DNA of 64,000 bases from Eledone cirrhosa. Lineage: Eukaryota. The position numbers and the translations under genes were made by a program. Shown piece by piece: positions 34,169 to 37,159 of this stretch. The stretch lies in NCBI GenBank assembly GCA_964016885.1, contig OZ024742.1, forward strand, positions 72,044,001 to 72,108,000. Direction: 5' to 3'. The notes below the pieces were generated by a model, which saw only the letters and a program-made list of their open reading frames with translations, was not told where the DNA came from and ran no database searches. Each line of letters begins with the position of its first letter. The first letter of the stretch is position 1.

Positions 34169-35423
34169 GTTTGTCTGTCTGTCCTTCCCTAAAACTCAAA
34201 TGTAGGTGCTACAGAGATATTACCTTCCCCTTCCTTTCTCCACTTTGGTACTACCAAGAGAAACACTGTCGCTATAGAAACATTACCTTCCCCTCTCCAC
34301 TGACTTTGGTCACTGAGGCCGAGGGAATCGCTGGTTGCTATAGAGACACCTTGCACAAGCCAGAAGTAACCAGTTCGAGGTGGTTCTGACTTGACACCAT
34401 GCCAAGGATCATTTGAAGATATATTTCCATCGTTATATCATAACGTTTATGTATCATAACGTTTATATTTCCGTCACTAATCTCTTTTTCTCCTTTTTCG
34501 TTTTAACATATATTTATTTCAAAGATTTCACCGCATAGATAACATACATATTCATACATGCATAAAAGACACACCGAGAGACGGTGAACATGTGGTGCCG
34601 AAAACATTTCTCATCCAAATCTCAACAATATCAGTATATACACTAGATTTGCTAGCAGAAAACCGCCCACCGGGTGGTTTTCTGCTAGTCTATATTACTA
34701 AAACAGAGAATGTCTGTTTGTCTGTCTGTCTGTCCAATCACTAAAACTCGAGAACCACCCAACCGAGTTTTTTCAAACTTTACACATGTAATACTTATGG
34801 TCCCGTGAGTGTTTTGAGCAAAAATAGTTCAAATTTTCAATGCCCTAGGGACCGCATTAGGCGATTTAGCGATCTCTCTCTATAATTCTTAGTCTTTCTC
34901 TTTTTAGATTGATACATAGATATGACGTCGCGCCCTTATAATATCTGTCTGTATGCCTGACTGTCTGCATTACGTCATTATGACGCGATCAGTGTGTGTG
35001 TGTATATATGTTTATATAGTGTGTGTGTAAATATATATATTCTTATGCCAGGGAACGTCTTCATGAACCAAAGTATCGTCTTCCTGTTTTCCTTCGGTTG
35101 CAACGTTTTTAGAAATATTTACATCTGCGTTCACAGATTGATTTTTTTAATTTTAGTTTCAGAAGATCCCGTTAAGGGTGAAAGCAGCGATTCTTTTGCT
35201 TAAACTTTAATCTGTTACTTTAATATATATATATATATATATATATATATATATATATATATATATATATATATATATATATATATATATATATATATAT
35301 ATATATATATATATATATATATATATATATATATATATATATATATATATATGAGAGACGTAAGATAAGAAAATTATAAAATTATAAAAAAATTTATAAA
35401 ATTGACTTACTTACTAAAATATC

Positions 35424-35505
35424 ACTTCCAACTAATTAGTTTCTGGAATGGAGTAAATATATTTTCCGAAGAACATATGGAAAAGCATTCCGTCGTCAGG
35501 AAAGT
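35424..35505 (-). ncRNA. Hammerhead ribozyme (array copy, sense to host gene)
   Basis: Reverse complement of 36585-36666. Confidence 0.75.
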
Positions 35506-35964
35506 CTATTTTCATGTAAGTTTCCAGGCATAGCGAGGACTCTGGAAACTTATTAAAAAATAATTCAGTGGAAAGGAAATAGCGAAGCGTGGACTGAAAT
35601 ATAGCCATTGAGAAAATCACTGCCTCTACGTCTGTGGCAAATTCAAAAAGAATCAATCACGTGACATCGAGGTCAATCAGTGGAAAGCGAGTTGTTAATA
35701 AGACAGCGGCCTGCCTACTACTATAGCAGCAGTCATGGCCAATATTGCTCGACAAATGAATTGGAGATAATTATAAAGAATATATATCTAGTAACATTTA
35801 TATACAGACAGATGCATATCAATGCTAGCAAATATATAGGTTTTGTCTTAGTAACATTGTGGTTCAATGCATGGGGTTGCAGAACAATAATATGAGAGAC
35901 GTAAGATAAGAAAATTATAAAATTATAAAAAAATTTATAAAATTGACTTACTTACTAAAATATC

Positions 35965-36046
35965 ACTTCCAACTAATTAGTTTCTGGAATGGAGTAAATA
36001 TATTTTCCGAAGAACATATGGAAAAGCATTCCGTCGTCAGGAAAGT
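35965..36046 (-). ncRNA. Hammerhead ribozyme (array copy, sense to host gene)
   Basis: Same sequence as 35424-35505, offset by 541 nt. Confidence 0.75.
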
Positions 36047-36584
36047 CTATTGACGACTGAATGCTTTTCTATATGTTCTTCGGAAAATATATTTACTCCA
36101 TTCCAGAAACTAATTAGTTGGAAGTGATATTTTAGTAAGTAAGTCAATTTTATAAATTTTTTTATAATTTTATAATTTTCTTATCTTACGTCTCTCATAT
36201 TATTGTTCTGCAACCCATGCATTGAACCACAATGTTACTAAGACAAAACCTATATATTTGCTAGCATTGATATGCATCTGTATGTATATAAATGTTACTA
36301 GATATAAATTCTTTATAATTATCTCCAATTCATTTGTCGAGCAATATTGGCCATGACTGCTGCTATAGTAGTAGGCAGGCCGCTGTCTTATTAACAACTC
36401 GCTTTCCACTGATTGACCTCGATGTCACGTGATTGATTCTTTTTGAATTTGCCATAGACGTAGAGGCAGTGATTTTCTCAATGGCTAGGATTTCAGTCCA
36501 CGCTTCGCTACTTCCTTTCCACTGAATTATTTTTTAATAAGTTTCCAGAGTCCTCGCTATGCCTGGAAACTTACATGAAAATAG

Positions 36585-36666
36585 ACTTTCCTGACGACGG
36601 AATGCTTTTCCATATGTTCTTCGGAAAATATATTTACTCCATTCCAGAAACTAATTAGTTGGAAGT
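36585..36666 (+). ncRNA. Hammerhead ribozyme with extended stem II and cUUCGg loop
   Basis: actttc-CTGACGA-c ggaatg...atatgttc TTCG gaaaatat...cattcc a-GAAA-ctaattaGTT-ggaagt. Palindromic stem III ACTAATTAGT. Confidence 0.78.
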
Positions 36667-37159
36667 GATATTTTAGTAAGTAAGTCAATTTTATAAATTT
36701 TTTTATAATTTTATAATTTTCTTATCTTACGTCTCTCATATTATTGTTCTGCAACCCATGCATTGAACCACAATGTTACTAAGACAAAACCTATATATTT
36801 GCTAGCATTGATATGCATCTGTATGTATATAAATGTTACTAGATATAAATTCTTTATATATATATATATATATATATATATATATATATAATTATATATT
36901 CGTGTACAGATATTTGTGCATACACAATAACAAAATATAAACAAAAGTATTTATTTCGCGATAAAGTATTGATTTTCTTCGCACGAAAAAATACCCCTGG
37001 TAATCTATGACGAATTTTTCTTATAAGTACAAAATGTAGACACCATCCCGAGGCCGAGGTATTCCCTACTTCTCTGTACTGTTTTATATATATATATATA
37101 TTAAAGGAACGATCGACTTTCTTCAAATCGGACCGAGGGAACAATGTTTCCGTTGGTCT

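Follow-up and report, generated by a model that had tools for sequence, protein, structure and literature searches.

Introduction

Retrozymes are tandem non-coding repeats that carry type I hammerhead ribozymes and are expressed as circles, with Penelope-like elements (PLEs) proposed as their helpers (Cervera and de la Pena 2020, PMC7229834). Their units span 51-972 bp and are related to pseudo-long terminal repeats, or pLTRs (Li, Clavereau and Pollet 2026, bioRxiv 10.64898/2026.07.22.740005). Here we describe an element at 35350-36858 of a 64,000-nucleotide stretch of Eledone cirrhosa contig OZ024742.1; this whole stretch is called the window, and coordinates are positions in it. By sequence criteria the element is an animal non-LTR (long terminal repeat) retrozyme. 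We think it quite probable that it represents one insertion of a high-copy, non-coding 541-nt family of such retrozymes with a predicted ribozyme, mobilised in trans into a (TA)n run by a PLE enzyme.

PLEs show partial tandems, an inverted 5'-truncated copy, a tail of 30-40 bp at one end and a bias for (TA)n (Craig et al., PMC8557442). A PLE protein nicks and extends both strands, starting at internal RNA sites (Frangieh et al., PMC11167929). One of these starts lies 111-118 nt into the open reading frame (ORF) and the ribozyme cut lies at 26, so that subtraction places the start at about +85 to +92 after the cut. This protein uses uncut RNA, and the tail is located between the two start sites. 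Truncated PLE ends with opposite-strand hammerheads 100-700 bp apart, 10-nt palindromic helices III in Aedes PLEs and 450-bp tandem repeats in D. willistoni have also been described (PMC4209133). The literature treats three questions as open: which enzyme moves animal retrozymes, by which route tandem and inverted insertions of PLEs arise, and whether PLE hammerheads are cut in vivo (bioRxiv 2026.07.22.740005, PMC11167929, PMC8557442, PMC7229834).

Structure of the element

The element has a 541-nt period in each of its two arms, which are built from a single 541-nt unit and placed head to head at 36051. Unit positions are numbered from the predicted hammerhead cut, in the ribozyme sense. The features are as follows.

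35223..35352, no strand: left side of the target microsatellite, (TA)65, sharing ATAT with the arm end
35350..36051, minus strand: left arm, 702 nt, about 1.3 units, running outward from the junction; -80/-81 to +81 of the next repeat
35424..35505, minus strand: complete type I hammerhead motif with full upstream context; C3 at 35499, predicted cut after 35430
35430..35970, minus strand: left cut-to-cut monomer, 541 nt
35965..36046, minus strand: hammerhead whose core and basal helices are complete, with C3 at 36040 and the predicted cut after 35971; the junction has taken away distal helix I
36040..36051, no strand: head-to-head junction; the 11-nt spacer is the left arm's, with a 1-nt overlap at 36051
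36051..36858, plus strand: right arm of 808 nt (about 1.5 units), from -69 as far as +198 of the next repeat
36051..36125, plus strand: broken hammerhead without the 5' helix I strand and without C3; private substitutions at 36058 and 36070
36120..36660, plus strand: right cut-to-cut monomer, 541 nt, 34% GC; 7 alignment columns differ from the left monomer
36585..36666, plus strand: complete type I hammerhead motif with C3 at 36591 and the predicted cut after 36660
36742..36858, plus strand: 117-nt "tail", +82 to +198, at one insertion end only, with a long predicted hairpin inside
36855..36899, no strand: right side of the target microsatellite, (TA)n

Both outer arm ends run into (TA)n, with which they overlap by ATAT and TATA; because the target is a TA run, a target duplication is unreadable. 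Partial tandem with inverted truncated copy, two alternative 3' ends and a microsatellite target are thus all found here, as in PLE insertions, and the coding PLE remnants of the window (133-2404 and 57080-59163) show a like pattern. From the side of the retrozymes, two consecutive complete motifs (35499 and 36040 on the minus strand) lie 541 nt apart, and the unit is non-coding with a GC content below 50%, occurs head to tail in many copies and has a highly self-paired predicted circle.

A reading made earlier from the letters of the window (the sequence-only reading) had described a protein-free, retrozyme-like and PLE-related array of tandem and mirrored monomers. Its general placement agrees with the non-coding unit, the many-copy family and the PLE architecture in the window. 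The period and the mirror also hold, while the arms contain about 1.3 and 1.5 units and are not an array of whole monomers. The inversion, which had been put near 36050 at the ribozyme, maps to 36050/36051, where the arms overlap by 1 nt and a spacer of 11 nt is left unpaired. That the unit holds no reverse transcriptase (RT) ORF is likewise borne out: the longest stop-free stretch in the right-arm unit (GC content 0.34) is 74 codons, therefore no RT is encoded, and the single ORF with RT and GIY-YIG domains that defines an autonomous endonuclease-positive (EN+) PLE was not found in the 541-nt unit. The repeat itself is real. The main clue, namely the (TA)n target, the two recurrent 3' ends with their 117-nt tail and the differing alleles of the arms, had been overlooked.

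A splice-donor-like GTAAGT stands at unit +16 (window 36135), 3' of the ribozyme, and an acceptor-like TTTCCAG at about +429 (window 36548), upstream of the next ribozyme. There is no GT-AG joint among the joints listed from the sequencing runs.

The repeat family in public sequencing runs

Of 16 public sequencing runs listed, none of them on record as RNA, 13 contain part of the stretch under study. Four of the 16 (X1, X4, X5 and X14) were compared with 36012-36600 at an identity of at least 80%; they may stem from individuals or species other than that of the window (the best share of words is 0.69). The family accounts for 1725 contigs in X1, spread over all identity bands, for 35 in X4 and 76 in X5, and for 6317 reads in X14. 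Three of the runs, X4, X5 and X14 (here with 176 reads from 15 starts), list the 541-nt head-to-tail joint, and X1 does not. A 587-nt contig of X4, a run of unknown kind, holds most of the unit together with this joint; it was not used as evidence of expression.

The arm ends recur in the family. Among the 24 of 306 loose ends listed, two of the six from X1, one at 36200 (13 contigs) and the other at 36317 (4 contigs), run on into (TA)n, and these coincide with the two arm ends in the window (+81 and +198). The consensus at the 36200 end proceeds into a flank that differs from the one in this window.

These data bear on two ways of explaining the element without a mobile non-autonomous family. 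The first takes the arms to be merely the 5'-truncated ends (pLTRs) of a coding PLE. Truncated ends with opposite-strand hammerheads at 100-700 bp are described for PLEs (PMC4209133), a solo PLE end is present at 18394-18573, and linkage to an ORF was judged within the window, with the loose ends taken from those listed. Same-strand ribozymes 541 nt apart nevertheless need a 541-nt period, and the corresponding joint is common in three of the four runs; the unit has no ORF of more than 74 codons, and the share of X1 contigs that run on for at least 20 unlike letters is 0. We consider this explanation quite improbable. The second, proposed as a route in bioRxiv 2026.07.22.740005, is a satellite derived from a PLE end, which would spread at the DNA level only, by unequal crossover and local inversion, with an inactive or irrelevant hammerhead. 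The predicted blocking of helix I in context and the non-significant depletion of variants in the ribozyme, both given below, fit this view. Against it, the insertion is short (1.3 and 1.5 units) with unrelated flanks, its (TA)n ends lie at two positions that recur in other contigs, the coding PLEs in the window have the same architecture, and the arms bear different family alleles, so that we find a satellite unlikely.

One of the 15 joints leaves out the ribozyme, giving a 459-nt variant, and picks up again at 36120, the first base 3' of the predicted cut (one contig in X1; three reads with two starts in X14). The two letters within this joint agree with the family allele of the next two positions, in which case its other side would fall at -81, which is also the boundary at the start of the left arm. 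We take this as a hint of cleavage in vivo, spotted post hoc and in few records.

Other ends in the runs were also looked at. Opposite-strand joints at 36119/36162 (X4) and 36118/36402 (X14) have one end at or beside the predicted cut, with a geometry that is not resolvable from the tables. Two further opposite-strand joints (36016/36076 and 36051/36558) were set aside as artefacts of mirrored bases in the reference stretch. The read-end pile-ups of X14 were considered as ribozyme cuts and rejected: the 6 listed of 11 are all at AATT sites and are therefore attributed to the library enzyme.

Two probable templates for the two arms

The left and right monomers differ in seven alignment columns. 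Three sites can be compared within the right arm, and at each of them its two repeats agree with one another and differ from the left arm. The left arm carries the family majority allele at three of the seven difference sites, the three that are visible in the listed variants. The simplest reading of the arms, and the one favoured, is that of two templates, each internally uniform. A monomeric circle would yield this uniformity within an arm automatically, and a homogenised tandem source or gene conversion would do so too.

Two templates are favoured over a fold-back or chimera because the arms differ at seven sites and the right-arm repeats share alleles. Snap-back copying of one arm was rejected because of the alleles, the length and the strand of the spacer. 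The right arm neither copies the left alleles nor stops at the left end, as it would after a snap-back or an assembly fold-back. For the assembly in particular, it can be said that no listed contig or joint spans the junction with its private letters, that at 36058 all of the X1 and X5 depth has the family letter, and that inverted PLE structures trouble assemblies (PMC8557442). The silence of the runs on one locus proves little, because they may be from other individuals or species. A fold-back would reproduce the left alleles and the left end; the arms instead differ in seven columns and in length, and they end at two family-typical positions. A mirror that arose as an assembly artefact is for these reasons most improbable.

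The predicted ribozyme

In a scan of the whole window with a descriptor, three of the element's motifs proved complete, those at 35499 and 36040 (minus strand) and at 36591 (plus strand). The sequence-only reading had counted four, two per strand; its 541-nt spacing is correct, and the fourth copy is broken by the junction. The core reads CUGACGA...GAAA, with a bulged C. Helix II has 6 bp, is closed by G-C and carries a 35-nt extension with a cUUCGg loop, one extra A stands between helix II and GAAA, helix III is a 10-nt palindrome, and the cleavage triplet is GUU. The long stem II with its tetraloop and the palindromic stem III had been noticed before, and both are seen. The word "minimal" that had been used for the motif does not apply, as helix III is full and helix I can be extended: it has 6 bp, and in the copy at 36585-36666 it can reach 36569/36681 across a 4x4 internal loop. 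Among 3000 dinucleotide-shuffled monomers none passed the strict descriptor, and two passed a relaxed one.

An Rfam covariance-model search gave no match at the gathering score and, at E up to 10, six matches with no hammerhead family among them. These sub-threshold matches (MIR841 and others) were discounted, as they reflect the palindrome. Because Rfam gives no hammerhead match, the call rests on our custom descriptor and the published consensus. The consensus for PLE hammerheads (PMC4209133 Fig. S3: CUGANGAH, G...C helix II, GAAAN, palindrome, NUH) is matched save for the extra A and a much longer helix II loop. One row of that figure prints the same extra A; its organism is not assignable from the text.

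A covariance model (R2) recovered its own four training copies and 22 weak matches, all at or below 21 bits. A pattern scan of viral contigs gave no match to the motif. Three metagenome-contig loci from the pattern scan were dismissed as chance: they are without helix I or II, and the similarity stops at the motif.

The motif folds below -5 kcal/mol. As a hairpin the 10-nt palindrome is predicted to be weak (+1.5 kcal/mol), and as a duplex it is predicted to be strong (-9.0). For the isolated left arm a double-hammerhead fold is placed at -150.5 kcal/mol compared to -141.5 for two single folds, the minimum free energy (MFE) being -163.8. Cleavage as a dimer via the palindromic helix III is plausible from these models. 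The circular monomers are predicted to fold far below their shuffles (z of -6.3 and -5.4, 25 shuffles each). Across the family, a common variant at 36589 changes a G-U pair of helix I to G-C.

The same scan found one motif elsewhere in the window, unrelated to the element, at 51948. This solitary hammerhead-like motif (51890-51956, minus strand, core at 51948) has an 8-bp A-U helix I, an extended helix II and likewise one extra base before GAAA; it is a single copy in the window.

Position in a host transcript

The element lies in an intron of a gene of the DEG/ENaC (amiloride-sensitive sodium channel) family:

29965..43002, minus strand: host intron (approximate) of the DEG/ENaC gene, about 13 kb

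Its flanking exons are on the minus strand at 43155-43003 and 29964-29761, and the exon that was tested shows 84% identity to proteins of Octopus vulgaris and Argonauta. Because the gene is read from the minus strand, both motifs of the left arm have the orientation of the channel pre-mRNA, as had been stated before. From this the sequence-only reading derived that host transcription could release an RNA of ~541 nt, linear or circular, with masking by the fold-back as the other possibility. The orientation, the intronic position and two complete cores 541 nt apart speak for release. The antisense arm comes first in minus-strand transcription, however, and the hairpin loop at the junction is only 11 nt. 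The predicted 680-bp helix, from the junction to 35353/36737, covers both co-oriented ribozymes. Once the junction is included in the fold the probabilities of helices I and II are 0.0, and forcing single hammerhead folds changes the energy from -1184 to -951 kcal/mol, a cost of more than 230 kcal/mol. The upstream ribozyme is also without its distal helix I. Since the 680-bp helix would bury both ribozymes, release of a monomer from this transcript is very unlikely, and masking is the better of the two readings.

According to the fold model, the transcript would more likely form a long double strand within the intron, on which editing or dicing could act. The locus is probably an intronic passenger, which at most would supply editing or silencing with about 700 bp of double-stranded RNA. 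At 3280-4989 on the minus strand the DEG/ENaC gene has one very large exon of about 508 codons, with 70% identity to the Octopus vulgaris protein and no Pfam match.

Proposed mechanism and its implications

A mobilisation in trans by a PLE enzyme could proceed as follows. The GIY-YIG/RT protein of a PLE would nick both strands of a TA run, and each nick would prime reverse transcription on a separate RNA, aided by 4 nt of TA homology. Counted from the ribozyme cut, the start would be +81 for one cDNA and +198 for the other, leaving the 117-nt tail at one end. Each cDNA would exceed one unit, either by going round a circle or by following an uncut multimer, and would halt at the 5' edge of a ribozyme, after which a head-to-head joint between the two would form. 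The task of the ribozyme at source loci would be to reduce multimers to monomers, for which it would probably act as a dimer via the palindromic helix III. In the host pre-mRNA of the present locus, the mirrored arms would pair with each other, and the long double strand would silence the ribozymes.

Several observations weigh against this account. Gene conversion between the right-arm repeats could mimic the allele pattern, and the junction is not bridged in X1, X4, X5 or X14 among the listed contigs and joints. The tail of 117 nt far exceeds the 30-40 nt published for PLEs, the ends of the element share 4 nt (ATAT/TATA) with the target whereas the PLE studied in vitro began at RNA sites that lack target homology (PMC11167929), and no autonomous partner was found in the 64-kb window, the similarity to its PLE ends being limited to AT-rich runs. 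Other doubts concern the ribozyme. There is the extra A between helix II and GAAA. The predicted probability of helix I is 0.0 in the two circles as well as in the arms taken singly, and does not exceed 0.41 in short co-transcriptional prefixes, and a hammerhead-like fold is the MFE at only one of four flank lengths. The ribozyme is therefore not predicted to be free to fold in context, a trait that is usual, not absolute, among retrozymes; most metazoan retrozyme circles are predicted to leave it free, with mussel exceptions (PMC7229834). Additionally, eight of nine predicted Xenopus retrozymes were uncleaved in vitro (bioRxiv 2026.07.22.740005). The core and helices hold one of the 37 listed variant places in 54 of 550 positions (P = 0.10; 40 of 167 variant rows are listed and the private 36058 is left out), a depletion that is not significant.

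A more far-reaching version can be proposed only tentatively. The family would be an active retrozyme family with a hammerhead that Rfam misses, and its copies would record the PLE reaction: two RNA templates, probably circles, copied from two fixed starts at the two nicked strands of a (TA)n target, and a head-to-head joint. The ribozyme-less copies that resume at the scissile bond would then be DNA fossils of cleavage in vivo.

If this version is true, animal retrozymes would be tied to PLE enzymes by an insertion signature and not by co-occurrence, and the inverted head of PLEs would be explained as a two-template event. Given a short, young and high-copy family with two fixed ends and arms that can be told apart by their alleles, the open questions on retrozyme movement, PLE insertion and hammerhead cutting are testable by counting across one genome. 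The family also supplies a 541-nt template for an in vitro PLE assay.

Other elements in the window

PLE-type RT and GIY-YIG reading frames lie at 133-2404 on the plus strand, in an element of 1-2985 with a hammerhead at 2725 (plus strand). Its inverted head is 98% identical and has a hammerhead at 129 (minus strand), and its 3' side ends in (AT)n at 2986. A frameshifted RT and GIY-YIG region at 57080-59163, within an element that extends to 59722, has no Pfam match; we presume from its motifs that it is PLE-like. This element has a minimal hammerhead-like motif with an altered core at 59606 and ends in a microsatellite 89 nt after the predicted cut. A solo copy of its end at 18394-18573 has 91% identity and an intact core at 18450. 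A GIY-YIG remnant (15092-16075) lies in an element at 14790-17529, in which about 400 nt of the 3' end are inverted at the 5' side (99-100%) and the descriptor scan finds no hammerhead.

Close to the retrozyme, a minus-strand element at 36879-37410 sits between 83-nt direct repeats; we assume that it is a tRNA-derived short interspersed element, and ARAGORN finds no tRNA in it. Direct repeats of about 245 nt (33047-33290 and 34486-34726) end in a hairpin and CTAG, which we take to be Helitron-like ends, and the TA target of the retrozyme sits among repeats such as these. A degraded non-LTR retrotransposon with RVT_1 matches (37522-40284, plus strand) begins 0.6 kb from the element, and further ones are found at 22-27.5 kb and 44.4-46.5 kb. 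A Tc1/mariner-like transposase remnant lies at 5437-6552.

Comparison with known systems

The form of the insertion is closest to that of EN+ PLEs (Penelope/Poseidon, Neptune, Nematis, Hydra). Like them, in the papers cited above, the element has a terminally redundant partial tandem, an inverted 5'-truncated copy, a tail at one end, an AT-rich or (TA)n target and a 3' end some 80-90 nt after the hammerhead cut; unlike them, it is without an RT-EN ORF. Its ribozyme resembles the PLE hammerheads with palindromic helix III of Aedes and Drosophila (PMC4209133) in the bulged base after CUGANGA, the G10.1-C11.1 pair, the 6-bp helix II, the 10-nt palindromic helix III suited to dimer folding and the GUU triplet. 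It differs from this type in a 6-bp basal helix I that is extendable over an internal loop, in the long helix II extension and in the extra A. The non-autonomous PLEs of Chlamys, such as MRC1 (PMC8557442), are comparable as non-coding PLE parasites with pLTRs and head-to-tail insertions, but they are from green algae, most are without canonical hammerheads, and their targets are (CA)n and (C)n.

A literature search, which had most subscription papers outside its reach, returned no octopod retrozyme and no mirrored retrozyme insertion in titles or the starts of abstracts. The retrozyme papers, as far as their main texts were searched, report neither a mirrored head nor fixed alternative ends nor a (TA)n target for retrozymes. 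With metazoan non-LTR retrozymes (PMC7229834, bioRxiv 2026.07.22.740005) the element shares non-coding head-to-tail units with one type I hammerhead each, a GC content below 50%, a high copy number, a strongly self-paired predicted circle and co-occurrence with PLEs. Its 541 nt are within their range of 51-972 bp, for which the mussel is a mollusc precedent at 350-390 bp. The 35-nt helix II extension, the extra A before GAAA, the failure of Rfam to detect the motif and a ribozyme predicted to be blocked in the circle set it apart from the known ones. The element is thus a variant, both in the architecture of its ribozyme and in bearing a PLE insertion signature, of a class that is itself already known.

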